Source: Escherichia coli
GTDB taxonomy: Bacteria > Pseudomonadota > Gammaproteobacteria > Enterobacterales > Enterobacteriaceae
Length of the DNA: 64,000 bases
Assembly: GCF_024223415.1 (NCBI RefSeq)
Contig: NZ_CP100500.1
Reading direction: 5' to 3' (one strand)
The notes under the pieces are model-generated. The model was given only the letters and a program-made list of their open reading frames with translations. It did not search any database and had not been told where the DNA came from. The number at the start of each line of letters is the position of its first letter. Positions within the stretch are counted from its first letter, which is position 1. Below are positions 6,816-42,573 of the stretch, piece after piece. Both the position numbers and the translations under genes were made by a program.

Positions 6816-7430
6816 TCAGCCAGCAAGCGCCAGTGGCGCTTCCGGCCAGCTGATTTCAGGTGCCTTGCTGATATCCAGTGCGTTCAGATCGTCGATATAA
6901 TCCAGCACGGCATTCAGTTTTGCCGTTTCTTCTGGTGTCAGACTGCGACCTGCCCGCAACTTAAGGTTGATGAGGTCGATGGACTTCATCGCCTGATCCA
7001 CCCGTTCCTGGCGTTGCTGTCTGGCAACCTCCAGCTCTTCGGCTTGCTGCCGTTCTGTATCGGTTACCCACGCCTCACCGTTCCAGGTATCCCATGGTGT
7101 GGCAGGCTGTTTTGTCGTTGTCCCTTCCGGGTAGTCACCTGGTTGGGTAATCTGGACCGGATTACCGTTCTCTGTGCTGTATACCGTCTCTCCACGATGA
7201 TCGGGGACATACTCCCACCCGTCCAGCGTGGACGTCCGGCAAATCACGTAACCCGGCATTGCCTCTGGCGGGGCATCGGCGCATGAATGTGCCGGGGTAC
7301 CCACCCCCAGGGCCAGATACTCCACAGAGGATGAGGTGTATTCCCGGGTTTCCTCATCATAGTGATATACAGTGATATCGCCTGCGAAAGTGGCGATACC
7401 GTTTTCATCCAGAACTGCAGTGTTACTCAT
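6816..7430 (-). CDS. tail fibre assembly protein (Mu U-like)
   Basis: 204-aa tail fibre assembly protein sequence; start ATG overlaps the tail-fibre stop (TAATG). Confidence 0.8.
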   Translation of the reverse strand: MSNTAVLDENGIATFAGDITVYHYDEETREYTSSSVEYLALGVGTPAHSCADAPPEAMPGYVICRTSTLDGWEYVPDHRGETVYSTENGNPVQITQPGDYPEGTTTKQPATPWDTWNGEAWVTDTERQQAEELEVARQQRQERVDQAMKSIDLINLKLRAGRSLTPEETAKLNAVLDYIDDLNALDISKAPEISWPEAPLALAG

Positions 7431-9268
7431 TAAACTGCCCTCACAATATAATTAAAAGCGATATTGCGCGGTCTGATCGCTATCCATCTGTCTTTTTCAT
7501 TACTCACCAGCTTACCGGCTCTGGCTATTGCCCATCTGTCAACTGGTTTTGTGCCGTACAGGATGCCGTTACCGGTTCTGGGTTGATCAGGGGTTATGTT
7601 TATGATGTCGTTATCATGTGATGCAAATGAAATCCCTGCCTGAATATCTGCACCTCCCGCTACGCCGTGGTACGCCTGTATGGAGGTACAAATATATGTT
7701 GCTTCCTGTGTGGATAACAATAAGCGTCCCCTGTCAATCATTCGCAGGTCATCCCATCCACGAATAAATTCCCCGCGCAAATCTGGTAGCCTGAGGTCAG
7801 GGTAGGCCACCGCCAGTTTTGGGTATTTTGTACGCGTGAATGCGGCACCGTTGCACTGTAACCACCCCTCAGGTGGTCTTGACGAAGGCCACGGAACGGG
7901 TACGCCAACTGGCAGCGTCGAGCCTTCTCCTAAACCAAGGTAATCAAGAATATCTTTTATGCTTTGTTTACCCATGATGACGCGGGCAACAGACGAAAAA
8001 ACAGGGGCGTCTGTGATCTGAGCCCAGCGATGAGTGTGGGCTGCCGAGGCTTTGCTGTTGGCAAGGTCATACGCAGCTTTAACAGCTTTTGGTGTGGCCG
8101 CCAGCATTTCGGAATTGCTGTTTGTGGCGCTGCTTAGCTGTACGATGCCTTTGCGTCCGGTGGTTGCATCCTGTCCTGTATACTTGCTCGTCAGCATATC
8201 GTGTAAGGCTTTAACCGCTTTGGGGGTGGCGGCCTCAGTCTCTGACTCACTGTTTGTGGCACTGCTCAGCTGTACGGTGCCTTTTGCCGTCAGCGAGGCT
8301 GATGGCACACCTGTTATCTGATTCCACGGGTGGGTGTGGCTGGCGGGTGCTTTACCGGCTGCAAGGTCATATGCAGCCTTGACGGCTTTTGGTGTGGCCG
8401 CCAGCGTTTCGGAATTGCTGTTTGTGGCGCTGCTCAGCTGTACGATGCCTTTGCGTCCGGTGGTTGCATCCTGTCCTGTATACTTGCTCGTCACCATATC
8501 GTGTAAGGCTTTAACCGCTTTGGGGGTGGCGGCCTCAGTCTCTGACTCACTGTTTGTGGCACTGCTCAGCTGTACGGTGCCTTTTGCCGTCAGCGAGGCT
8601 GATGGCACACCTGTTATCTGATTCCACGGGTGGGTGTGGCTGGCGGGTGCTTTACCGGCTGCAAGGTCATATGCAGCCTTGACGGCTTTTGGTGTGGCCG
8701 CCAGCGTTTCGGAATTGCTGTTTGTGGCGCTGCTCAGCTGTACGATGCCTTTGCGTCCGGTGGTTGCATCCTGTCCTGTATACTTGCTCGTCACCATATC
8801 GTGTAAGGCTTTAACCGCTTTGGGGGTGGCGGCCTCAGTCTCTGACTCACTGTTTGTGGCACTGCTCAGCTGTACGGTGCCTTTTGCCGTCAGCGAGGCT
8901 GATGGCACACCTGTTATCTGATTCCACGGGTGGGTGTGGCTGGCGGGTGCTTTACCGGCTGCAAGGTCATATGCAGCCTTGACGGCCTTCGGTGTGGCGG
9001 CCAGTGTTTCAGAAGTGCTGTTTGTGGCGCTGCTCAGTTGGGTGAATCCTTTTTCTGTCAGTGTCGCGTCAGGGTGGTTACGGGAACGTGCGTGTTCAGC
9101 CAGTGACTGTGCGACTTCCTCCGTTTTCTTCTTCAGCCATTTCGTCCTGTTTGCCAGTTGCCGGGGGGCTCGATTTGATATCCCGTCTGCACCACCCAGA
9201 ACCGGATCTGATGTCTCCAGTTGATAGATATTTTCTTCCCACTTTTCTGTTTCATTCAGGTTTCCCAT
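7430..9268 (-). CDS. tail fibre protein (Mu S-like) with internal 100-aa repeats
   Basis: Repeated SSATNS..ETLAATPKAVKAAYDLA..HTHPW motifs; GGGAG RBS before ATG at 9268. Confidence 0.85.
   Translation of the reverse strand: MGNLNETEKWEENIYQLETSDPVLGGADGISNRAPRQLANRTKWLKKKTEEVAQSLAEHARSRNHPDATLTEKGFTQLSSATNSTSETLAATPKAVKAAYDLAAGKAPASHTHPWNQITGVPSASLTAKGTVQLSSATNSESETEAATPKAVKALHDMVTSKYTGQDATTGRKGIVQLSSATNSNSETLAATPKAVKAAYDLAAGKAPASHTHPWNQITGVPSASLTAKGTVQLSSATNSESETEAATPKAVKALHDMVTSKYTGQDATTGRKGIVQLSSATNSNSETLAATPKAVKAAYDLAAGKAPASHTHPWNQITGVPSASLTAKGTVQLSSATNSESETEAATPKAVKALHDMLTSKYTGQDATTGRKGIVQLSSATNSNSEMLAATPKAVKAAYDLANSKASAAHTHRWAQITDAPVFSSVARVIMGKQSIKDILDYLGLGEGSTLPVGVPVPWPSSRPPEGWLQCNGAAFTRTKYPKLAVAYPDLRLPDLRGEFIRGWDDLRMIDRGRLLLSTQEATYICTSIQAYHGVAGGADIQAGISFASHDNDIINITPDQPRTGNGILYGTKPVDRWAIARAGKLVSNEKDRWIAIRPRNIAFNYIVRAV
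7437..7469. repeat. 33-bp inverted repeat, copy B (inside the last codons of the tail-fibre gene)
   Basis: GCCCTCACAATATAATTAAAAGCGATATTGCGC; partner of 6771-6803. Confidence 0.7.
7985..9000 (-). repeat. in-frame tandem repeat, 300-bp unit, about 3.4 copies
   Basis: Near-identical 95-aa antisense ORFs at 8034, 8334, 8634 and 8934 reveal the 300-bp period; sense strand encodes repeated 100-aa units. Confidence 0.7.
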
Positions 9269-9270
9269 AA

Positions 9271-9849
9271 TCAACTTCTCCCGTGGTTATAACTGCCATC
9301 ATGGATGGCGGTATTGTTATAGCGAATGGCCACAGACTGATACTCCAGGCTGGCCAGATGGCAGCGGGCCGGTGCAAATGCAGTGAGCGTCTGACGCAGC
9401 ATCGCGGCCTGATCGTTAGTAATGGGCTGTTTCAGAATAACGCGATAAACCGCCCAGCCTGCTGTATCTCCATGAACAAACAGTCCGTTATGGCTGCGAT
9501 TGCCGTCGTAACTGAGACGACCTGTGCCTTCAATCAGATCCACTTCACCAAAGCCAAAACGGCGGATAACTTCCCGGATTGACCACGGCGTCCCTTTATA
9601 CCGGTGCAGTTCGATGGCTGCTTTTATAAGCATGCGGCGAACATCGTCCGATTCCGCCAGCTCCCAGCCATCGCCAGACAGTGAGAACTGCTCGCCCAGC
9701 CATGGCAGCGCGGAACTGTCGACGATATCGACGAGAAAGACCATCAGTACGCTCAGGTCGATGTTATCCAGCCGTCCTGCCAGTCTTCCCAGCGTCCTGA
9801 GACTGATATCACCCTCAAGCGGTGGCGGGAGTTGTAATGGCTCAGTCAT
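9271..9849 (-). CDS. baseplate/tail protein (P2 gpI-like, Mu gp48-like)
   Basis: 192 aa; position between baseplate J and tail fibre. Confidence 0.75.
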   Translation of the reverse strand: MTEPLQLPPPLEGDISLRTLGRLAGRLDNIDLSVLMVFLVDIVDSSALPWLGEQFSLSGDGWELAESDDVRRMLIKAAIELHRYKGTPWSIREVIRRFGFGEVDLIEGTGRLSYDGNRSHNGLFVHGDTAGWAVYRVILKQPITNDQAAMLRQTLTAFAPARCHLASLEYQSVAIRYNNTAIHDGSYNHGRS

Positions 9850-31177: not shown

Positions 31178-31308
31178 GAAAATGTCTCCTTGTTGTGTGG
31201 AGACAGCATGGCAAAAGCGTGGCGCGGAGGATTTTAAAGCGCGTTAAGAGAGAGGCGTGTTCGGGGTATGCAGAATACACGCTGGATCACTCACAAAGGA
31301 GATACAGA

Positions 31309-31857
31309 ATGACAGTCACACCGAAGCCGACCATCACCGTCAGAGTGTCCGGGCCTGTGGGCAGCGGTAAAAGTTACGTTCTGACGCGTATAAAAGAGAT
31401 GGTGAAAAAGGAATTTGGAAAAAGCGTCATTGTCGATGCCGCAGTTGTGGACGACGAGCGTATCTGTCGGACGAATGAGCTGCTTCAGGAGCAACTCATG
31501 AAGGTGTTACGCAAACTCACCGGTCAGACAACAAAATGTTTTTCAGCCCCGGAGTACGGGATACAGGAACACATCCCGGTGAACATGCCCCCCGTTAACC
31601 AGCCTCCCCGGTTCTTCGACGAATACATTCTGACACCGGAAAATAAAGCTGAGCATGAAGAGATCAAAGCGGCGTTGTTCCGGGAAATCAGGAAGATTGC
31701 TGAAATGCAGCTGGAGGGCGGGCTGGACAGAGTGATGGCGAGAGGAGAATGGGAATCGCTGTTTGAAAGAGTTTCCCCGGAATTGCTTCCCCTCGCACTG
31801 GCTATCGGGATTATGCAGACAGCGGATAAACCTCACTTACGTTCATTAAACACGTAA
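31309..31857 (+). CDS. small P-loop NTPase/kinase-like protein, unknown function
   Basis: Walker A GPVGSGKS at residues 14-21, hhhhDD-type VIVDAAVVDDE; AAGGAG RBS 7 nt before ATG; opposite strand to the flanking late genes. Confidence 0.6.
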   Translation: MTVTPKPTITVRVSGPVGSGKSYVLTRIKEMVKKEFGKSVIVDAAVVDDERICRTNELLQEQLMKVLRKLTGQTTKCFSAPEYGIQEHIPVNMPPVNQPPRFFDEYILTPENKAEHEEIKAALFREIRKIAEMQLEGGLDRVMARGEWESLFERVSPELLPLALAIGIMQTADKPHLRSLNT

Positions 31858-32237
31858 CGCATAATCCGGGATACGCATTCAGCGATGACTGCATTTTCAC
31901 CGGTTTTTACTGCATCCAGAAGTGACTCTTTAAATGGTACGGGCCGGGGCTGCAGAAAGGTCGGCATGGCATTGAGCAGACAGAGCGTTTTTTCCGTGAG
32001 GACGACATCAGCCGCTCCCACAGCCAGCAACTGAGAGTAACGAATATAGCTGTTATCCCGAAGCCATATCAGCGTATCAATAAAATACCGGCACTTTTTC
32101 TGATCGTGATCAACCTGGTCCGGGATATCGAAAAAACCAGAATAAATCAAAACCTGAGGAGCCGGATGCGTGTTCAGTAATCGGCAGAATATTTTGCCGG
32201 TGAGTACATAAAAATCATCATTTAAGGAGTGCATCAT
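31833..32237 (-). CDS. hypothetical protein (134 aa)
   Basis: ORF convergent with the P-loop gene (25-nt 3' overlap) and divergent from the next gene; weak RBS; coding status uncertain. Confidence 0.4.
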   Translation of the reverse strand: MMHSLNDDFYVLTGKIFCRLLNTHPAPQVLIYSGFFDIPDQVDHDQKKCRYFIDTLIWLRDNSYIRYSQLLAVGAADVVLTEKTLCLLNAMPTFLQPRPVPFKESLLDAVKTGENAVIAECVSRIMRYVFNERK

Positions 32238-32451
32238 GAATCCCCGATTAACGTTAACAGAACATCAGCGCCGTGCCGAAGCAGTGAACAATGTTCTGGA
32301 AGATATTATCCGGTTACATCGCGGAGAACTGAGTGTCTGTCGTGCCACTGTTCATTTTCAGGAAATACAAAAGCAGTTTGATACTTCTGTTTTTGCAGAA
32401 GGGATCACTTATGCCCTGGACCAGATAAGGTCAGAAAATCGCCCCGGATAA
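32236..32451 (+). CDS. small hypothetical protein (71 aa)
   Basis: AAGGAG RBS 6 nt upstream of ATG; start overlaps the start of the divergent ORF by 2 nt. Confidence 0.5.
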   Translation: MNPRLTLTEHQRRAEAVNNVLEDIIRLHRGELSVCRATVHFQEIQKQFDTSVFAEGITYALDQIRSENRPG

Positions 32452-32643
32452 TCCCTAAACCACATTAACAGAAATCACTTCATCCCTGCCGCATCATGAA
32501 AGAACGACCAGCCCGGTGCTTCGGACCCACCAGGCTGGCCATCGTCCCACAGGAATGCGCTGTGAGCCGACCGGGGTTCAGTCAGTCTCGCGAGACCAGA
32601 CTAGCCTGCCATATTTTTAATAATTGTAAAAGGCTTACAGATT

Positions 32644-33408
32644 ATGAAAATGCAGACATTACCCATCGTTCCATGGATTGGTGGCAAACGTCGCCTGGCA
32701 AAACACATCCTGCCGCTGTTTCCGGCGCATGAATGTTACGTGGAGCCGTTCTGCGGCGCAGCAGCGCTCTATTTTCTTAAGACACCTGGTAAGCTCGAAG
32801 TCATTAACGATATCAATGGTGAACTGGTAAATCTGTATCGGGTGGTAAAACATCATCTGGAAGAATTTGTCCGCCAGTTCAAATGGGCGCTGGTCAGCCG
32901 GCAGATCTACAAATGGCTGCAGATCACCCCGACAGAAACACTGACGGATATCCAGCGTGCAGCACGGTTCTACTACCTCCAGAAGCAGGCGTTTGGCGGC
33001 AAGGTGGCAGAGCACAGCTTCGGCACCTCCACCACATCCCCGCCACGCTTCAACCTGCTGCGTATCGAGGAAGAACTGTCAGCGGCACACCTGCGGCTTT
33101 CCAGAACGGTGATAGAACACATGGACTGGCAACAGTGCATTGAGCGCTATGACCGTCCGCACACGCTGTTCTACTGTGACCCGCCGTATCTGGGTACAGA
33201 AGGCTATGGTGTGGATTTTCCTGAAGGGAACTACTCGCGGCTGGCAGAGCTGGCCCGGTGCATCAGAGGAAAGATGATAATTTCGGTGAACGACATCCCG
33301 CAGATGCGCGAGGTGTTCACTGGACTGAACATACAGACAGTGAACATCAACTACAGTCTGGCAGGCAAATCAACTCCACGCCGTGAGCTGGTGATCTGCA
33401 ATTTCTAA
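32644..33408 (+). CDS. DNA N6-adenine methyltransferase (Dam-like)
   Basis: Motifs FCGAAALYF and DPPY; 254 aa; no partner nuclease gene adjacent. Confidence 0.85.
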   Translation: MKMQTLPIVPWIGGKRRLAKHILPLFPAHECYVEPFCGAAALYFLKTPGKLEVINDINGELVNLYRVVKHHLEEFVRQFKWALVSRQIYKWLQITPTETLTDIQRAARFYYLQKQAFGGKVAEHSFGTSTTSPPRFNLLRIEEELSAAHLRLSRTVIEHMDWQQCIERYDRPHTLFYCDPPYLGTEGYGVDFPEGNYSRLAELARCIRGKMIISVNDIPQMREVFTGLNIQTVNINYSLAGKSTPRRELVICNF

Positions 33409-34525: not shown

Positions 34526-35443
34526 ATGGGACGCACCAAATCACCGGTTAACACTGAACTGAACGCCGAGGTACCGCTGTCGGATGATCTCAACGTCAGC
34601 CTGAATGCCATGACACAGCATCGCATGGAGATCATGCAGCAGTTTGGTGATGGACTGCCTTATGAACGTGATCGCATCGTTCACGAAGCACGTTTTTATA
34701 TGGCGCAGAGTGCTGAATCTATGCTGGAAGCGGGTAAACGGCTGATCATCTTAAAAGAAAATGAGCCACACGGGGACTTTGTTGGAATTGTAGAAGAACA
34801 ACTTGGTTTGCACGTGCGCGCAGCACAACGAATGATGAAAGCATCTTTGAAATACCTTTCACCAAAACTAGAGCCAAAAGCGACAACGTTGTCGCTTTTG
34901 GGTAAGGCAAAATTATTTGAACTTGTTGCTGAAGACGATGAAGACCTTGCCGAACTGGCCGACGGCGGCACAGTTGCCGGCCTGACGCTTGATGATGTTG
35001 ATCGCATGTCAGTACGTGAACTTCGCCAGGCCCTGCGTGAAGCGCGCGAAACTAACGCAGCTCAGCAACAGGTGCTTGCCGGAAAGGACGAAAAAATCAA
35101 CGAACTGGCCACAAAACTGGAGAAGAAATCCCGTATTCAACCGCCTGAGCCTGATGAAGAGGTGAAGAAGCTGCGGGCGGAAGTGACCGCATTAGCGGTT
35201 GAGGCGGAATCTGCCATCGCCGTCCGGCTCTCCGGTGCCTTTGAAACCCTGTGTGAATACTGCAGTAAAAACATGATTGATACCCCCAGAGATTTCATGG
35301 CCGGTCTGGTCTGCCAGATTGAACGCAGTGTTCATGCATTGCGTGAGACGTTCGACCTTGATGCCGCACCATCGGGTAACGATGCCCCCGCCTGGCTGAC
35401 CGAACCGGAGCCTGAAATCAACCGACCGGAGGGCATGCAGTAA
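34526..35443 (+). CDS. hypothetical early protein (305 aa)
   Basis: ORF in the early operon; acidic coiled-coil regions. Confidence 0.55.
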   Translation: MGRTKSPVNTELNAEVPLSDDLNVSLNAMTQHRMEIMQQFGDGLPYERDRIVHEARFYMAQSAESMLEAGKRLIILKENEPHGDFVGIVEEQLGLHVRAAQRMMKASLKYLSPKLEPKATTLSLLGKAKLFELVAEDDEDLAELADGGTVAGLTLDDVDRMSVRELRQALREARETNAAQQQVLAGKDEKINELATKLEKKSRIQPPEPDEEVKKLRAEVTALAVEAESAIAVRLSGAFETLCEYCSKNMIDTPRDFMAGLVCQIERSVHALRETFDLDAAPSGNDAPAWLTEPEPEINRPEGMQ

Positions 35444-35760
35444 TGAACACGGATAACACACAAAATATCCTGATGGACAGCCCGGAAGCACTGGGGCACG
35501 CACTGTGTAATCTGCTGCCGGAGATGGTGCAGGGTTTCCGCGTGGTGACACCTTCCGGTGAAATCTGCGTACCCGCACAGGAGGCGCATCCGTTTGTACT
35601 GACGATGGAAGTGATGCTGATGCAGCAGATAAGACGTCTGCAGCATCAGTCAGCATTGCGCCCGGCAGTTGCGCCGCAACCGGTAAATAACGTGGTGAAA
35701 ACCTGCGATGGCGAAACACTGTACGACCTCGCCAGAAAAATTGCCGCCAGAATCGGATAA
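35443..35760 (+). CDS. hypothetical early protein (105 aa)
   Basis: ATGA stop-start overlap with the upstream gene. Confidence 0.5.
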   Translation: MNTDNTQNILMDSPEALGHALCNLLPEMVQGFRVVTPSGEICVPAQEAHPFVLTMEVMLMQQIRRLQHQSALRPAVAPQPVNNVVKTCDGETLYDLARKIAARIG

Positions 35761-35775
35761 CAGGGAAGACAAGCT

Positions 35776-37545
35776 ATGACCCCGGCACTGACTGAAAAAC
35801 TTGTTGAAACAGCCCGCGCGGCACGTAATGCAGGGCATGGTAAACGCGGTGCAATATACGACGCTGCCTGTGCTGAACTTGGCATGTCCCGCGCCACTCT
35901 GCTGCGCAGGCTGAAGGAGGTCTCTGTGACTGATAAACGCAAAAAACGCGCCGATGCCGGACGCAGCACCCTGACCCGCGACGAAGCCGCGCTGATATCT
36001 GCCACACTACGTGAGGCCACCCGCAAGAACGGTAAGCGTCTCTATTCCATCGCGGATGCAGTGGAAACCCTGCGGGCTAACGGCTTTATCTCCGCAGGCA
36101 GAACAGATGAAACCACCGGTGAGTTTTTCCCGTTGTCCGAAGATGCCATCAGTCGTGCCCTGCGTAACTATGGCCTGCACCCGGAACAACTGGATGCCCC
36201 TGCACCGCATACCGAAGTGGCCAGTCTGCACCCCAATCATGTCTGGCAGATTGACGCCTCACTCTGCACGCTTTACTACCTGAGCAATGGACATAAAGGG
36301 CTGCAGGTGATGGACAGCGCGAAATTCTACAAGAACAAGCCCGCTAACCTTGCCCGTATCGCCAGTGACCGCGTGTGGAGTTACGAGATTACCGACCATG
36401 CCAGCGGCTGGATTTACGTTGAGTATGTGACGGGTGCGGAATCCGGTGAGAACCTGTGTTCTGTGCTTATCAACGCCATGCAGGAGCGTGGCGGCGCAGA
36501 CGTGCTGCACGGCGTGCCAAAAATACTCTATCTCGACCCCGGCTCGGCAAACACCGCGGGTATGACGAAAAACATGTGCCGCTCACTGGGCATCGACCTG
36601 ATAGCGCACAAGCCGCATAACGCCCGCGCCACCGGACAGGTGGAAAAGGCGCGTGACATTATCGAACGCAAGCTGGAGCCGGGTCTGAAGTTCCGGCCGG
36701 TTCACAGTCTGGAAGAACTCAACGCGCTGGCCGCGAAATGGCGCAGCCACTTTAACGCCACGGCTGTTCACAGCCGCCACGGTAAAACCCGCACGGATAT
36801 CTGGCTGAAGATTACTGCTGAGCAGCTGAAAAAAGCGCCTTCCGTTGAGGTATGTCGTGAACTGGCTGTGGCGGCACCAGAACTCCGCAAAGTCACGCCA
36901 AAACTTCGTGTCTCGTTCCGGGGCACTGAATTTGACGTATCAACGGTACCGGGCGTACTGGTCGGTGAAAAACTGATGATTACCCGTAACCCGTGGCGCA
37001 GCGATGTGGCACAGGTGGTTCTGACCGGTGAGGACGGCCACGAGACGTTCTTCCTGGTCGAAGAGGTCAGAAAGAACGAGTTTGGCTTTGCTGAAGGCGC
37101 GGCGGTATTTGGCGAAAGTTACAAAGCCCTGCCGGAAACCCCGGCGCAGATGGCGGCAAAAGAAACCGAAGCGCTGGTCACCGGTACAGACAACGCCGCA
37201 GATGCAGCTGCCGCACGCAAGGCGAAGGCGCTGCCGTTCGGCGGGCGGCTTGACCCGTATAAACATATTGATGACGCCACACTTCCGGCCTGTATACCGA
37301 AGCGTGGTCAGGCCTCTGACGTACGCGGACCGCGCACTGAACAGCGTCCCATGACTCATGTGGAGGCCGCGAAAGCCCTGCGCGGGAAGTTTAGCGCAAA
37401 CGGCCTGACCTGGACGCCGGAACATTACCGCCAGTTAACGGCACAGTACCCGGACGGCGTACCGGAAGCCGCACTGGATGAAGTCATGGCCACGCTGACC
37501 ACGCCGGCCCGCAGCAGCGTTATCAGCATTGTTAACGGCAACTGA
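35776..37545 (+). CDS. DDE transposase (Mu A-like)
   Basis: 589 aa; N-terminal HTH, integrase-core-like region (HVWQIDASL...), followed by the B-like ATPase. Confidence 0.85.
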   Translation: MTPALTEKLVETARAARNAGHGKRGAIYDAACAELGMSRATLLRRLKEVSVTDKRKKRADAGRSTLTRDEAALISATLREATRKNGKRLYSIADAVETLRANGFISAGRTDETTGEFFPLSEDAISRALRNYGLHPEQLDAPAPHTEVASLHPNHVWQIDASLCTLYYLSNGHKGLQVMDSAKFYKNKPANLARIASDRVWSYEITDHASGWIYVEYVTGAESGENLCSVLINAMQERGGADVLHGVPKILYLDPGSANTAGMTKNMCRSLGIDLIAHKPHNARATGQVEKARDIIERKLEPGLKFRPVHSLEELNALAAKWRSHFNATAVHSRHGKTRTDIWLKITAEQLKKAPSVEVCRELAVAAPELRKVTPKLRVSFRGTEFDVSTVPGVLVGEKLMITRNPWRSDVAQVVLTGEDGHETFFLVEEVRKNEFGFAEGAAVFGESYKALPETPAQMAAKETEALVTGTDNAADAAAARKAKALPFGGRLDPYKHIDDATLPACIPKRGQASDVRGPRTEQRPMTHVEAAKALRGKFSANGLTWTPEHYRQLTAQYPDGVPEAALDEVMATLTTPARSSVISIVNGN

Positions 37546-37555
37546 GGAGGGAAAC

Positions 37556-38722
37556 ATGCTGGTACTGAAGCAGCAACTGAAAGAGGCCCGTATTCCACAG
37601 GCGGTGGCGGCGAGAGCTGTCGATGTTTCTGAGGCCACGCTGGCCCAGATTGTGAATCATAACGCGTGGCCCCGCACCAGCCCCGGAGAAGTGCGCCGGC
37701 GTCTTGCGTCCTGGCTGGAAAGTCAGGGGATTGATACAACGAAGAGTTTTGATGCTGTACAGGGCGCGGCCACGCCCCGTACAGCGAGTACCACAGATAA
37801 AACGAGCCTCAGTGAGGAAGAGAATATGTTACTCAAAAAACAGGTGTTATTTCCAGCAACCAAAAAAGCGTTTGGTCTTTTCCGTGACCCGTTCGCCGAC
37901 GAAGCCATGCAGGGTTCTGATGATGTGTTCACCACCCCGGACATTCGCTACGTGCGTGAGGCGCTGTACCAGACAGCCCGTCATGGTGGGTTTATGGCCG
38001 TCATCGGTGAGTCCGGTGCGGGTAAATCCACGCTGCGCCGCGACCTGACTGAACGTATTAACCGCGAGAATGCGCCGGTAATTGTTATCGAGCCATACAT
38101 CATTGCCATGGAAGACAACGATGTGAAAGGGAAAACCCTGAAGGCTGCAGCGATTGCCGAAGCCATTATCAGTACCATCGCACCACTGGAAAGCATCAGA
38201 CGCAGTCAGGACGCCCGCTTTCGCCAGTTGCATCGCGTCCTGAAAGGCAGCAGCCAGGCGGGGTTCAGCCACGTTCTGGTGATTGAGGAGGCCCACAGTC
38301 TGCCCATTCCGACACTGAAACACCTCAAACGCTTTTTTGAGCTGGAGTCCGGTTTCAAAAAACTGCTGTCCATCGTGCTGATTGGCCAGCCGGAACTGGC
38401 GACAAAACTGTCTGAACGCAATATGGAAGTCCGTGAAGTCGTTCAGCGCTGTGAGGTGGTCGAACTTCTGCCTCTGGACAATAACCTTGAAGAATTTCTG
38501 ACGTTCAAACTGCAACGGGCCGGTAAACAACTGACGGACATTATGGACGCCAGCGCAGTGGATGCCATACGTGCCCGCCTGAGCAATCCGGGAAGTCATC
38601 GTAAAAATATGGTCAGCCTGCTGTATCCGCTGGCCGTCAGTAACCTGGTAATAGCCGCCATGAATCTGGCCGCTGAAATCGGGGTTCCACAGGTCAACGC
38701 TGACGTTGTCAAAGGAGTTTAA
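37556..38722 (+). CDS. transposition ATPase (Mu B-like, AAA+)
   Basis: Walker A GESGAGKST, Walker B HVLVIEEAH; GAGGAGG RBS before ATG 37556. Confidence 0.85.
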   Translation: MLVLKQQLKEARIPQAVAARAVDVSEATLAQIVNHNAWPRTSPGEVRRRLASWLESQGIDTTKSFDAVQGAATPRTASTTDKTSLSEEENMLLKKQVLFPATKKAFGLFRDPFADEAMQGSDDVFTTPDIRYVREALYQTARHGGFMAVIGESGAGKSTLRRDLTERINRENAPVIVIEPYIIAMEDNDVKGKTLKAAAIAEAIISTIAPLESIRRSQDARFRQLHRVLKGSSQAGFSHVLVIEEAHSLPIPTLKHLKRFFELESGFKKLLSIVLIGQPELATKLSERNMEVREVVQRCEVVELLPLDNNLEEFLTFKLQRAGKQLTDIMDASAVDAIRARLSNPGSHRKNMVSLLYPLAVSNLVIAAMNLAAEIGVPQVNADVVKGV

Positions 38723-38724
38723 TA

Positions 38725-38994
38725 ATGAAATCCACCACAGGTATCAACCAGCAAATCAGCAAAGTGCAGTCAGCCATTATGGCGCTTAAGGCGACGAACA
38801 CGGATGTACAAAGCATCACCATCAGGGGTAACAAACCTGTCATCCGCGTTTCCCGGAGTGCGCATTGCATGCGCATGCTTGAGCAGGGAAAGGCCTGTTA
38901 TCTGTATACCGGACATGACCACAGGGGATATTTCCGTCAGGGCGTTTTCGAACTGCACGGCTGTCGCGTCGTGTGGCCGGAATCTTTGTGGTAA
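38725..38994 (+). CDS. hypothetical early protein (kil-position)
   Basis: 89-aa ORF between B and gam. Confidence 0.5.
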   Translation: MKSTTGINQQISKVQSAIMALKATNTDVQSITIRGNKPVIRVSRSAHCMRMLEQGKACYLYTGHDHRGYFRQGVFELHGCRVVWPESLW

Positions 38995-39021
38995 TCAGCA
39001 CAACCGGAGAAATCATAAAAT

Positions 39022-39552
39022 ATGGCAAAAAGTACAAAAGGGGCAAAACGTATCAAGGCCGCAGCGGCACTCTGGGTACCAGGGACACGCGAAGAGGTCA
39101 TTGAGGGAATCAGACTACTCGGTGACGCACAACGTGAACTGGTCAGGGCTGAAACAGAAATGAATGACGCCATTGGCGATATCACCGCACGTTATGCCCC
39201 GCTCACCGAGAGCCTGAAAAAACGCATGGCCGAACTGCAGTCCGGTATTCAGACATGGTGTGAGGCACACCGTGATGAACTGACCGGCAACGGGAAGGTG
39301 AAGTTCGCTAACCTCACCACCGGCGAGGTGCAGTGGCGAAACCGTCCGCCATCAGTCAGTATCCGTGGGGCGGATAATGTTATTGAATTACTGAGACGTC
39401 TGGGGCTTGAGCGCTTTATTCGTGTAAAAGAGGAAATAAATAAAGACGCTATCCTGAATGAAAAAGAGGCCGTGAAAAATATTCCCGGTATTTCCATTAA
39501 AAGCGACATTGAGGATTTTTCAATAATTCCTTTTGAGCAGGATGTGCAGTAA
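39022..39552 (+). CDS. gam: host-nuclease inhibitor Gam
   Basis: Closely parallels Mu Gam along its length (..SIRG.D.V.E.L.RLGL.RFIR.K.EINK.AIL.. and C-terminal IEDFSIIPFEQ). Confidence 0.85.
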   Translation: MAKSTKGAKRIKAAAALWVPGTREEVIEGIRLLGDAQRELVRAETEMNDAIGDITARYAPLTESLKKRMAELQSGIQTWCEAHRDELTGNGKVKFANLTTGEVQWRNRPPSVSIRGADNVIELLRRLGLERFIRVKEEINKDAILNEKEAVKNIPGISIKSDIEDFSIIPFEQDVQ

Positions 39553-39649
39553 ACACACCACGTTAATTATTTAATAAAAACATTTTCTTTTTTATTCCGG
39601 CGTCAGCGCCGCGGGCTTCTGCACGCCGGAAACAGAGGAGAATTAAATC

Positions 39650-39844
39650 ATGATATTTAAATGTATTCAGTGCGAGAGGGATATAACAGCCCTGCGTTTT
39701 CACAGCGCCATCGCCGTGATGTCCGGTAAATACCACATCCCTGCGGTACGCGTCACCCTGGTCTGTCCGTACTGCAGCCAGCATTTTTCGGCAGACGTGC
39801 CCGTCATGGAATTCTCCCGCCCTGACAGGGAGGACGCGCAATGA
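39650..39844 (+). CDS. Com-like zinc-finger protein candidate
   Basis: CxxC...CxxC (CIQC..CPYC) in 64 aa; stop overlaps the start of the next ORF (ATGA). Confidence 0.5.
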   Translation: MIFKCIQCERDITALRFHSAIAVMSGKYHIPAVRVTLVCPYCSQHFSADVPVMEFSRPDREDAQ

Positions 39845-40113
39845 TTACCCCACAGGAAGCACGACAGCGCACCCGAACCCTTGTTGAACACTATGTCAAC
39901 GAGTGTGAATGTCGCGACCTCACCGATGTGAAGCACGTCCTGACGGCGCTAATCAGCATGGCCACACAGGCCATTGTGGCAACCAACGGAAAGGCGGCTG
40001 CCCTGCAGGTACTGATGAACACACTCACCCACACGGCAGAGCATGAGGTGCCGTACCGGATGGAAACCACTGCAGAAGGCGGCCTGCACATCACCGTCAG
40101 CCGGAAGCACTGA
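39841..40113 (+). CDS. hypothetical protein (90 aa)
   Basis: Translationally coupled to the Com-like ORF. Confidence 0.5.
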   Translation: MITPQEARQRTRTLVEHYVNECECRDLTDVKHVLTALISMATQAIVATNGKAAALQVLMNTLTHTAEHEVPYRMETTAEGGLHITVSRKH

Positions 40114-40122
40114 GGGTGCGGC

Positions 40123-40419
40123 ATGACACGAAACACCGAACTCACCCGCACCGCCCTCTACCGTCTGGCCCTGCAGCGTTTCGGGCCGGATGCACAGGCC
40201 CTGAAACTGACAGAAGAGGCCGCTGAACTGGCGGCCAGTGCTGCCCGCAACCTGAACGGACAGGGCAGCGAAAGTGACCTCGCGGCAGAGCTGGCAGACG
40301 TGGAAATCATGACAGAGCAACTGCGCCTTCAGGGGATGGACCGGCTGATTGACTTCCACAAACAGAAAAAACTGGAACGTCTGGCTGCACGACTGGGCGT
40401 GATTTACACGAACGAGTAA
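40123..40419 (+). CDS. MazG-like nucleotide pyrophosphohydrolase candidate
   Basis: EExxE ... ExxD acidic motif pattern (EEAAELAAS ... AAELADVE) in a 98-aa all-alpha protein. Confidence 0.5.
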   Translation: MTRNTELTRTALYRLALQRFGPDAQALKLTEEAAELAASAARNLNGQGSESDLAAELADVEIMTEQLRLQGMDRLIDFHKQKKLERLAARLGVIYTNE

Positions 40420-40645
40420 CCGGGAGGCATTCAATGGCTGACATACTCAGGGAAATCACCGCATGGACACTGATTCTTACTGGTCTGGCGACATGCCTCA
40501 GTGCGGGAGCAGCCCTGGCTGCCCTGCTGATGCACATAACAACACAGTGGTTATGAGAAAAGCTTAAAGCAGCATACAGCCTGAAAGAGCTGTCCGACGC
40601 TGTCCGGGCATGGAAACGGCAGAAAAATACCGGAGATACAGAACA

Positions 40646-41329
40646 ATGACAGACCAGAATAAACACATTGAGAAACTGAAAAAGTTGCTGGCGCTGGCCG
40701 CATCCGGCAACCCGCATGAGGCTGCTCTGGCACTGCGCCGCGCCCGTAAACTGATGGATGTTCACGGCATCACACATTCCGACATCGCCATGAGTGATAT
40801 TGATGAAACCATCAGTCACTACTGGCCGACAGGCAGCCTCCGTCCGCCGCGCTACATGCCAGGGCTGATGAACATCATCCGCGAGGCATTTGGTGTTAAC
40901 TCCATCATTCACCCCGGCACATATCCGGGTGTGGGGTTCTACGGCAAACGGGAACGGGCCGCACTGGCCGCGTACACCTGGGAAGTGCTGGCCCGTCAGC
41001 TGAAAAAGGCGCGTCAGCAGTATATCAGTGCACAGAACAAAAGAATAAAAACCGCCACCCGCACCAGCCGTGGAGACCAGTTTGCTGAAGGCTGGGTGCT
41101 GGCCGTTATCAGTGAAATACAGTCCTTCGCCCTGACCAATGACGAACGTGAACTGATGCAGCAGTGGCTGGAACATAAATACCCGCAGACGCAAACCACC
41201 AGGGCGCGTAAACCGGGAAGAAGTCGCAATGGCGACGCCTCGCGCTATGCGGGGTTTCGAGAAGGGCAGAACGTCAGACTGCACCGACCGGTCAGTGGGC
41301 GGGAACAGCAGAAACTGGAGGCCAGATGA
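40646..41329 (+). CDS. hypothetical early protein with conserved N-terminal helical domain
   Basis: Start at ATG 40646; N-terminal IEKLKKLLALAASGNPHEAALALRRARKLM. Confidence 0.55.
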   Translation: MTDQNKHIEKLKKLLALAASGNPHEAALALRRARKLMDVHGITHSDIAMSDIDETISHYWPTGSLRPPRYMPGLMNIIREAFGVNSIIHPGTYPGVGFYGKRERAALAAYTWEVLARQLKKARQQYISAQNKRIKTATRTSRGDQFAEGWVLAVISEIQSFALTNDERELMQQWLEHKYPQTQTTRARKPGRSRNGDASRYAGFREGQNVRLHRPVSGREQQKLEAR

Positions 41330-41556
41330 TGACGTTATCAGGTAACAGCCGGAAATTAAAAGCCTGCCGAATATCTGCCAGATACCTTTTTGCCCGCGCC
41401 TTTTTTAAGAACGTCAGGCCGGGGATCACAATTGGTGTTATTGCCGGACGCGAACAGGTTGAAAAATACATGTCAGGTGCATGGTGGAATAAAGACCCTG
41501 TCATTGCTGCCCGTAATATTCATATCAGTTGGGGAGATATTCAGAATGACTGCTGA
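41326..41556 (+). CDS. hypothetical small protein
   Basis: 76-aa ORF; weak support. Confidence 0.35.
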   Translation: MMTLSGNSRKLKACRISARYLFARAFFKNVRPGITIGVIAGREQVEKYMSGAWWNKDPVIAARNIHISWGDIQNDC

Positions 41557-41761: not shown

Positions 41762-42203
41762 ACAACGTCTTATCCAGCTTATCCATATTGCCCGTAATGA
41801 ACTGGGTATGGATGAAGACACCTACCGCCAGATGTTACAGGGGCTGACCGGTAAAGCCTCAACCAAAGGAATGGATACCACACAACTAAACTGCGTGCTG
41901 GAATCCATGAAAAGGAAAGGCTTTCGCGTTAAGCCTGCCGGAAAAGCCAGCTCCGGTTTACCGCTGGATAACCATCCGCAGTCCAGGAAAATCCGTGCGC
42001 TATGGCTTGAAATGGCTGCTGCCGGCATTGTTCGTGACCGTTCAGAAAATGCATTAGCGCGGTGGATCAAGCGGGAAACGGGCATCAGCGCCCTGCGCTG
42101 GCTCAATACTGAACAGGCAAGCAGTGTTATTGAGAAACTGAAGAAGTGGCAGCACAGAGCTGCGGGAGTAAAACATGAGCGACCTGAATCAGTTTCGAAG
42201 TAA
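41751..42203 (+). CDS. gemA: GemA-like regulatory protein (Mu gp16 family)
   Basis: AGGAG RBS before ATG 41751; GemA-family N-terminal sequence; directly upstream of mor. Confidence 0.7.
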   Translation: MMTKQRLIQLIHIARNELGMDEDTYRQMLQGLTGKASTKGMDTTQLNCVLESMKRKGFRVKPAGKASSGLPLDNHPQSRKIRALWLEMAAAGIVRDRSENALARWIKRETGISALRWLNTEQASSVIEKLKKWQHRAAGVKHERPESVSK

Positions 42204-42573
42204 AGGGCCGGAACTCCTGGTGGAGCTGGCACAGCATACCTCTGAGACCGTTCGCGAGATTATTGATATTGAGCCCGCAATTGCCGACCAGATTGGTCAG
42301 GCCGTCGCGAACCGAATGATGCAGGTCTGGGGCGGGCAAAACGTTTATTTCCCGATGGGCATGGTATGGAAGGTCAGTCAGCGCGACCGGGAAATCTTCA
42401 GGGAGTTTAACGGACGCAACCACCACGAACTGGCCCGCAAGTTTGGTGTTTCGCTTCAGTGGGTCTACAGCGTGGTTAAGCGGGTCAGAAAAGAAGAACT
42501 GGATCGGATGCAGGGCAGGTTGTTTGATGAAGATCTGCCAGAGGAGACGAAAGACGTTAACAAATCCAGATAA
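42175..42573 (+). CDS. mor: Mor-family transcriptional activator
   Basis: 132 aa; C-terminal ..FNGRNHHELARKFGVSLQWVYSVVKR.. parallels Mu Mor (..FNGRNVSELTTRYGVTFNTVYKAIRR..). Confidence 0.75.
   Translation: MSDLNQFRSKGPELLVELAQHTSETVREIIDIEPAIADQIGQAVANRMMQVWGGQNVYFPMGMVWKVSQRDREIFREFNGRNHHELARKFGVSLQWVYSVVKRVRKEELDRMQGRLFDEDLPEETKDVNKSR

Follow-up and report, generated by a model that had tools for sequence, protein, structure and literature searches.

The window analyzed here comprises 64,000 nt of an Escherichia coli chromosome (NZ_CP100500.1) and contains a BcepMu-like transposable prophage, in which a module of three small open reading frames (ORF1, ORF2, and ORF3) lies between the holin gene and dam, the gene for a DNA adenine methylase. 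We found that ORF2 and ORF3 are divergent genes that start head to head within one shared CATG, and comparison with other phage sequences indicates that this arrangement is a mobile and widespread cassette common to two unrelated temperate phage families. The pair is almost certainly an accessory passenger of the phages that carry it. The remaining gene, ORF1, is a fusion of an N-terminal domain bearing a Walker A motif with a helical C-terminal domain that accompanies the pair. Tentatively, and a little short of calling it probable, we interpret the whole as composite lysogenic-conversion cargo with a self-regulating antisense layout and with exclusion or defence as its presumed role. The winged-helix fold of ORF2, the mobile ORF2/ORF3 pair, and the fusion of ORF1 with the pair-linked C-domain had all been missed by a first-pass annotation of the window, which was made from the sequence without database searches.

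A head-to-head gene pair in two phage families

All three ORFs are real genes: each matches a PHROG family (with an E-value, E, of 3e-44 for ORF2; Table 1 for ORF1 and ORF3), ORF2 has a confidently predicted fold, and purifying selection is measurable. The basic description given in the first-pass annotation was borne out by the sequence, including the lengths of 182, 134, and 71 amino acids (aa), the 25-nt overlap between the 3′ ends of ORF1 and ORF2, the overlapping starts of ORF2 and ORF3, the AAGGAG sites located 6 nt ahead of the ATG of ORF1 and 6 nt upstream of ORF3, and the Walker A motif GPVGSGKS in ORF1. The window is 100% identical to sequence of E. coli NRZ14408 (NZ_CP158426.1), for which RefSeq lists the same three coding sequences as hypothetical proteins. 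The three ORFs had also been said to break the strand polarity of the prophage, which is correct for ORF1 and ORF3, since these oppose the late operon and run in the same direction as dam and the early genes, but not for ORF2, which runs with the late operon.

Homologues of ORF2 with 30–34% identity were identified by tblastn in the P2-like phages Midge, FSL SP-004, and Klebsiella ST147-VIM1phi7.1 as well as in their relatives, where the pair is located between the genes for the portal protein gpQ and the replication protein gpA. The annotated records of these P2-like phages contain a gene of 63–64 aa that diverges from the same start position as the ORF2 homologue. Furthermore, 54 viral loci were fetched and checked by script; the 5′ part of the ORF2 homologue is retained in 52 of them, corresponding to approximately four independent lineages, and every one of the 52 encodes on the opposite strand a small ORF of 63–86 aa, the ATG of which lies within the CATG shared with the ATG of the ORF2-type, winged-helix gene. 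The same layout was found in six further loci (L004, L005, L007, L009, L073, in which the small gene is unannotated, and L074). One of these, the metagenomic Mu-like phage L009, carries a 28%-identical ORF2 homologue together with its small partner between an AbiJ_NTD4/Abi_C gene and the holin gene. In a BcepMu-like prophage of the Serratia type (L023), ORF2 is 54% identical to its counterpart in the window, and the ORF3 homologue is 35% identical (E 2e-12). Purifying selection acts on both members of the P2-type pair, the median ratio of nonsynonymous to synonymous substitution rates (dN/dS) being 0.08 in the case of the winged-helix gene and 0.15 in that of its small neighbour. This type of pair is present in 79 of 5,426 complete E. 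coli genomes, and it is therefore accessory in P2-like phages, too.

The AlphaFold2 (AF2) model of ORF2, which was based on an alignment of 136 sequences, is of high quality (predicted local distance difference test score, pLDDT, 90.7; predicted template modelling score, pTM, 0.85) and adopts a winged-helix fold. When this model was compared with AFDB50 using Foldseek, full-length matches to many DUF2513-annotated models were obtained (E 1e-9 to 1e-8, TM-score 0.8–0.87), and a Serratia homologue with 53% identity to ORF2 carries the UniRef label DUF2513. DUF2513 (PF10711) proteins resemble ORF2 in their length of approximately 130–150 aa and in the predicted combination of a winged helix with C-terminal helices; however, ORF2 has no Pfam hit even at E ≤ 10, the PF10711 hidden Markov model (HMM) likewise misses all 136 relatives, and an hhalign comparison of ORF2 with one genuine DUF2513 protein was not significant. 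Because the Pfam model misses both ORF2 and its relatives, we refer to the protein as DUF2513-like. Sequence searches with ORF2 against Pfam, NCBIfam, PADLOC, and PDB returned nothing, and a similarity to T7 gp5.5 mentioned in a GenBank note was rejected as unsupported (hhalign probability 0.2%). An exhaustive profile search recovered 844 cluster representatives at E ≤ 1e-3, nearly all of them stand-alone proteins of 125–150 aa, and all cluster members are named "hypothetical protein". A literature search for DUF2513 or PF10711 retrieved no paper on the family, the single match for PF10711 having an unrelated title. We consider it mildly probable that ORF2 binds nucleic acid. It should also be noted that in a P2-like metagenomic contig (L008, 4001–5354), an ORF2-family member without a partner adjoins a genuine Pfam DUF2513 protein encoded on the opposite strand, and thus two winged-helix paralogue families stand side by side in the P2 hotspot.

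The two genes of the pair differ in how readily they are lost. In the viral contigs L064 and L065, a deletion has left only the first 18 codons of ORF2; the gene is truncated to 40 codons in L021 and reduced to its start (approximately 47 nt) in 7 of the 498 complete genomes with the module, ORF1 and ORF3 being intact in each case, while ORF3 was never missing where ORF2 was present in the loci and genomes examined. Such a pattern would be expected if it were ORF2 that is active or imposes a cost, with ORF3 modulating it harmlessly, and we regard it as a hint to that effect. The one-sided loss of ORF2 would also suit an addiction module resembling a toxin–antitoxin (TA) system, in which ORF2 is toxic, ORF3 is the antidote, and the pair (or a trio with the C-domain of ORF1) secures its own maintenance or that of the prophage and has no anti-phage role. 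The compact two-gene layout, the rapid divergence of the small partner, and the mobility of the pair between unrelated phages agree with such a module. However, the two genes are divergent instead of forming an operon, so that they lack the co-transcription of type II TA systems, winged-helix proteins are usually the DNA-binding antitoxin or a regulator and not the toxin, and distant family members stand alone. Moreover, neither a toxin nor an antitoxin family was matched. The defence, exclusion, or toxin–antitoxin function proposed in the first-pass annotation is suggested by position. We therefore judge a TA-like module to be quite unlikely.

Another explanation, namely that the module is decaying, functionless, hitch-hiking DNA, appears highly improbable. 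It could account for the existence of ORF1 in forms of 247, 242, 182, 158, and 141 aa, for the occasional deletion or truncation of ORF2, and for the ratio of nonsynonymous to synonymous polymorphism (pN/pS) of 0.66 in ORF2, a value derived from very few substitutions. It does not fit with the observation that hardly any of the approximately 490 genomes with the module has a damaged copy of one of the three ORFs, with the strong purifying selection on the P2-type pair, or with the confident fold of ORF2 and its membership in a large family.

ORF1 as a domain fusion

Most E. coli relatives of ORF1 are 247 aa long. Compared to this long form, the allele in the window lacks residues 52–87 and 96–124, i.e., 65 aa that include the predicted third β-strand. 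Since diverged in-frame relatives of the short form exist (P0023 and P0027), the 182-aa ORF1 represents an established allele and no one-off lesion. The 158-aa and 141-aa forms, in turn, are devoid of the C-terminal 90 residues and hence of the C-domain. In L023, the gene convergent with the ORF2 homologue encodes a stand-alone protein of 102 aa that is homologous to the C-domain of ORF1 only (48% identity over 54 aa with ORF1 residues 117–168, E 7e-13). Therefore, the helical C-domain belongs with the ORF2/ORF3 pair, and the Walker-A N-domain is a separate unit seen in E. coli only. The prophage L010 carries the N-domain but neither ORF2 nor ORF3, and the pair occurs without the N-domain in L023, in L009, and in the P2-like phages. 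Judged from these alignments, ORF1 is a domain fusion, and its pN/pS of approximately 0.3 suggests that it is still constrained.

The N-domain had previously been described as a clear P-loop nucleoside triphosphatase (NTPase). As far as the Walker A motif is concerned, this is well founded: a β-strand is predicted at residues 8–14, directly ahead of the motif, which conforms to GxxxxGK[ST]. The downstream segment VIVDAAVVDDE includes VIVDAA, a possible Walker B of the pattern hhhhD. However, no curated NTPase profile matched ORF1 significantly, the best hits having E-values of 4e-4 to 1e-2 over approximately 40–120 residues. These marginal hits included SngB in PADLOC (E 3.8e-4, 17.6 bits), UreG in NCBIfam (E 0.0018, 18 bits compared to a cut-off of 204), and AAA_30 in Pfam (E 0.0077). 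A Walker B segment is expected in a parallel strand of a core sheet of at least five strands, and three β-strands are predicted for the long form and only two for the allele in the window. Furthermore, the AF2 model, computed from an alignment of 17 sequences, is unusable (pLDDT 42.8); with no family members outside E. coli, this alignment is shallow. The NTPase call was made on the Walker A motif alone and is overstated.

This comparison also bears on the idea that ORF1 is an active P-loop NTPase serving as effector or motor, with ORF2 and ORF3 as sensor and regulator. Established P-loop NTPases, such as the SIMIBI-type UreG and HypB, AAA_30 proteins, and SngB of Shango, show the same order of strand, P-loop, helix, and hhhhD-strand as ORF1, and the P-loop of UreG is, as we assume, nearly identical to GPVGSGKS. 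The invariance of the Walker A motif in all alleles, the constraint on ORF1, the in-frame relatives of the short allele, and the weak hits to SngB, UreG, and AAA_30 would fit an active enzyme. In contrast to these NTPases, ORF1 has profile hits (E 4e-4 to 0.2) that are restricted to the motif region, a deficit of predicted strands, and no recoverable fold, and the allele in the window has an internal deletion that removes the third strand. Considering in addition that N-domain and pair occur without each other and that the ORF1 family is confined to E. coli, we regard an NTPase-driven system as distinctly improbable.

The holin–dam slot and its surroundings

The first-pass annotation had compared the ORFs with Mu core functions; the prophage is indeed transposable and Mu-like, but it belongs with the BcepMu-like phages (Bcepmuvirus) and not with Mu proper. 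The only related phage record spanning most of the module is Escherichia phage PhiKM of the genus Bcepmuvirus. To the left of the module, the minus strand encodes the holin, an SLT endolysin, and structural proteins. On its right side, dam is followed by genes for a helix-turn-helix (HTH) repressor, a Ner-like protein, a DDE transposase, a transposition protein, a Gam-like protein, and a Mor/C-type late activator. The coordinates of the module and of its boundaries are given in Table 1.

Table 1. Features of the ORF1–ORF3 module and of the flanking prophage regions, with positions counted from the first letter of the window.
Feature	Position	Strand	Evidence or remark
Conserved block upstream of holin gene, presumed late-promoter region, left slot boundary	31178..31252	.	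Alignment of window, L003, L010, L011, L012, and Klebsiella KP12
Cargo insert, ~1.25 kb, in variable holin–dam slot	31253..32507	.	Left block abuts right hairpin in L012; relatives with unrelated genes
Dyad GCGTGT...ACACGC	31255..31282	.	6-bp perfect arms, probably chance
ORF1, 182 aa, fusion of Walker-A N-domain and helical C-domain	31309..31857	+	PHROG 3787, E 6e-89
Walker A motif GPVGSGKS, ORF1 residues 15–22	31351..31374	+	Invariant in 17/17 aligned family members
ORF1 C-terminal helical domain, residues ~99–182	31603..31854	+	Nearly invariant across E. coli alleles
ORF2, 134 aa, DUF2513-like winged helix and two C-terminal helices	31833..32237	-	AF2, Foldseek
Near-perfect 18-bp palindrome CGGCAGAATATTTTGCCG, ORF2 codons 13–19, 37 nt upstream of ORF3 ATG	32182..32199	.	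Fold z −3.6
CATG common to the divergent ORF2 and ORF3 starts, 2-nt ATG overlap	32235..32238	.	Same offset in 52/52 viral loci
ORF3, 71 aa, small partner of ORF2, probably helical	32236..32451	+	PHROG 4490, E 5e-51
Terminator-like hairpin followed by U-rich tract, right slot boundary	32497..32550	-	Fold, terminator scan, kept in L012
dam, DNA adenine methylase, right of slot	32644..33408	+	PHROG 56, E 4e-100; RefSeq annotation
Mor/C-type late transcriptional activator, end of early operon	42175..42573		phrog_532, E 2e-45

The slot boundaries were determined by aligning the region upstream of the holin gene from six related prophages. A left block of approximately 75 nt is kept in all six, whatever the content of the slot, and beyond it the prophages diverge up to the conserved hairpin on the right. 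While the slot of the window prophage holds ORF1, ORF2, and ORF3, it is empty in L012 (E. coli cS51a), where both conserved blocks abut; it contains a 107-aa gene together with a DUF2441 gene in L011 (E. coli 730V1), a 188-aa gene in the Klebsiella KP12 prophage, and the 158-aa N-domain form of ORF1 with two unrelated genes in L010 (E. coli SCU-172), in which dam is absent. At least five alternative contents, the empty state included, are thus found between conserved anchor genes in related prophages. As the content of the slot varies and can be missing altogether, the module is dispensable accessory cargo, which the first-pass annotation had correctly proposed from its position and which is corroborated by homologues of the pair in the gpA–gpQ interval of P2-like phages. 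By this comparison, BcepMu-like phages have a hotspot for cargo in the holin–dam interval, and we found no earlier description of it as such.

Some part of the region is matched by 634 of the 5,426 complete E. coli genomes, 488 of which contain at least 80% of the module. Overall, the module is carried by approximately 490–500 of these genomes and BcepMu-like prophages by approximately 630, including strains labelled O25b:H4-ST131. The ORF2 region (31858–32233) shares 99% identity or more with that of the window in 418 of the 498 genomes with the module, and the ORF3 region (32239–32500) is 95–99% identical in 464 of the 498. Divergence from the window thus changes sharply at the CATG junction, with the N-terminal part of ORF1 being the most diverged, which implies recombination breakpoints at the gene junctions and a mosaic module in the window.

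Regarding possible control elements, the hairpin at the right boundary is remarkably stable on the minus strand (−34.3 kcal/mol, z −5.4, none of 200 shuffled sequences being as stable) and is retained in L012 despite the empty slot; it probably insulates the late operon against leftward read-through. The 28-bp dyad that had been reported at 31254–31281 is actually located 1 nt further to the right. With its 6-bp arms, it folds no better than shuffled sequences (z −1.7 and −1.2), was not reported by a repeat finder at a minimum length of 10, and is not conserved in L003 or L010, the closest relatives bearing ORF1. Being weak and not conserved, it was rejected as an operator. The near-perfect palindrome within ORF2 has lost part of its symmetry in L023 and some loci of the P2 type, and it was discarded as a conserved operator, although it is kept as a weak lead. 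It is possibly an operator, on weak evidence, or it may be a by-product of codons for G/A-K/E-I-F.

Further observations concern other parts of these prophages. The dam–repressor interval, in which the window prophage has no annotated gene, constitutes a second variable slot in L012 (4905–7120), where it encodes a 401-aa protein with a weak match to KwaA of Kiwa (E 8e-5) and a 335-aa "nucleoid-associated protein". With respect to Dam, which the prophage encodes itself, a 6.4-kb stretch of the early/transposition region (35003–41424) is completely free of GATC sites, compared to 206 sites in the whole window (approximately one per 310 nt); the early operon may be under selection to avoid Dam sites. 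Finally, the tail-fibre gene (7430–9274, minus strand, 614 aa) contains a 300-nt unit repeated 3.3 times in frame at 8061–9037 with 98% identity, and these near-identical copies suggest a recent repeat expansion in the receptor-binding fibre.

Proposed mode of action and comparison with known systems

According to the reading that we tentatively favour, the insert would be a composite accessory (moron) element placed between the late (holin) promoter block and the terminator hairpin that precedes dam. At its functional heart would be the mobile two-gene cassette, with ORF2 most likely binding nucleic acid and ORF3 acting as its small, fast-evolving partner. The hairpin would stop minus-strand transcripts arriving leftward from the dam/repressor side, so that the promoter of ORF2 would have to lie within or just after ORF3, and ORF3 would be transcribed either from a promoter inside ORF2 or from ORF1, by read-through that crosses ORF2 in antisense. 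The ORF2 and ORF3 mRNAs would be mutually antisense at their 5′ ends, around both ribosome-binding sites, and this overlap could lead to mutual interference and thereby allow the pair to switch itself on and off. In phages of the BcepMu type, the cassette is accompanied by a third protein, which is helical, corresponds to the C-domain of ORF1, and is encoded convergently with ORF2; in E. coli, it is fused to the Walker-A N-domain. The cassette would act in the lysogen, most probably by excluding superinfecting phages or otherwise defending against phage; ORF2 would be the component that is active or carries a cost, and ORF3 would modulate it.

The position of the cassette is what suggests such a role. 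The cos-proximal gpA–gpQ locus of P2-like phages, in which the P2-type pair resides, has been described as a hotspot and reservoir of antiviral systems (Rousset et al. 2022, PMC9122126). The neighbours of the pair in this hotspot include a reverse transcriptase with an XRE/HTH gene, a COG2184 (Fic-type) protein, and a ComEC-like protein. On these grounds, we consider a defence or exclusion function of the cassette a serious possibility, albeit one that stops short of being probable.

Several observations weigh against this reading. Partition systems, toxins, and other cargo unrelated to defence are likewise found in hotspots of this kind (PMC9122126), and none of the three ORFs matched a defence, toxin, or antitoxin family in PADLOC, Pfam, or NCBIfam. 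A scan for defence systems, as advised in the first-pass annotation, gave no credible match, since PADLOC-DB 2.0 returned no hits for ORF2 and ORF3 and only P-loop-motif hits for ORF1; Rfam yielded no RNA family, and the ORF2/ORF3 pair was not found in the searched part of the supplementary tables of Rousset et al. (PMC9122126). Homology was not detectable between small partners of the E. coli/Serratia type and those of the P2 type (hhalign probability 0.15%), nor did the partner in L009 show BLAST similarity to ORF3. The small partners are either too diverged to be recognized or have been replaced, and the two types are linked by positional analogy alone. Distant members of the winged-helix family, moreover, occur without any partner. 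Scans around the CATG for σ70 promoters, using a position weight matrix and the consensus, covered seven loci from four lineages and gave scores at chance level and no shared position. Furthermore, the near-neutral charge of ORF2, as counted from its sequence, is atypical of a strong DNA binder, and the events of ORF2 loss are few and may be clonal.

It is also conceivable that the cassette protects nothing and instead belongs to the phage's own regulation, as an auxiliary switch whose target could be the late or lysis genes, dam, or transcription in the host, or that it serves in counter-defence. The winged-helix fold of ORF2 resembles that of transcription factors, and in three Mu-like lineages ORF2 is located just upstream of the holin gene and the late operon in the same orientation, with no terminator-like site found between ORF2 and the late operon. 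In addition, the head-to-head layout is reminiscent of the face-to-face promoter switches of P2 and 186. However, prophages that are otherwise similar have an empty slot or unrelated genes in it, a Mor/C-type late activator, a repressor, and Ner-like genes are already encoded by the phage, and the P2-like pair lies in an accessory hotspot and is found in just the small minority of E. coli genomes given above. In particular, ORF2 is not needed for late transcription because the phage possesses the Mor/C-type activator; for this reason, and since the slot can be empty, we rejected ORF2 as late activator, and ORF2 showed no Mor match in Pfam or PHROG. Taken together, we regard a regulatory or counter-defence role as unlikely.

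A more specific version of the exclusion hypothesis holds that ORF2 and its small partner constitute a new and widespread two-gene phage-borne exclusion system, arranged head to head and in antisense at the CATG, in which a DUF2513-like effector or sensor is restrained by a fast-evolving partner and which extends over P2-like and BcepMu-like enterobacterial prophages in thousands of contigs. This version is rather doubtful. If it were true, the pair would add a new two-gene system to the catalogue of prophage-encoded lysogen protection, the DUF2513-like winged-helix family with its hundreds of clusters would gain a first functional handle, and the holin–dam interval of BcepMu-like phages would become a second hotspot that is easy to anchor and could be mined for accessory systems. 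The conserved CATG layout itself offers an unusually clean natural example in which to study how two protein genes might control each other in antisense. Should the pair prove inactive, the region would be an ordinary moron of unknown function. While nothing in the region is categorically new, it is a good candidate for cloning and phage challenge.

Two known arrangements lend themselves to comparison. The first are the face-to-face promoter switches of P2 (Pe/Pc with C and Cox) and 186 (pR/pL with CI and Apl), which operate by transcriptional interference and with which the comparison is one of layout. Facing promoters and antisense transcripts that overlap at their 5′ ends, as we infer them for the ORF2/ORF3 pair, are common to both, and one of the products is a small protein of the DNA-binding type. 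In contrast to these switches, the coding regions of the pair abut at the CATG, which would place each promoter inside the coding sequence of the partner; furthermore, ORF2 and ORF3 have no sequence relation to C, Cox, CI, or Apl, and they control no downstream operons.

The second is the cargo of the gpA–gpQ locus of P2-like phages, for instance old, tin, retrons, and PARIS. Unlike this cargo, the module of the window matches no validated or candidate system in PADLOC, either as a whole or as the pair, its carrier is a transposable BcepMu-like phage, and its slot is the holin–dam interval. Like this cargo, it is a small cassette that is found between conserved anchor genes in a minority of prophages, and homologues of ORF2 with a divergent small partner are present in exactly that hotspot.

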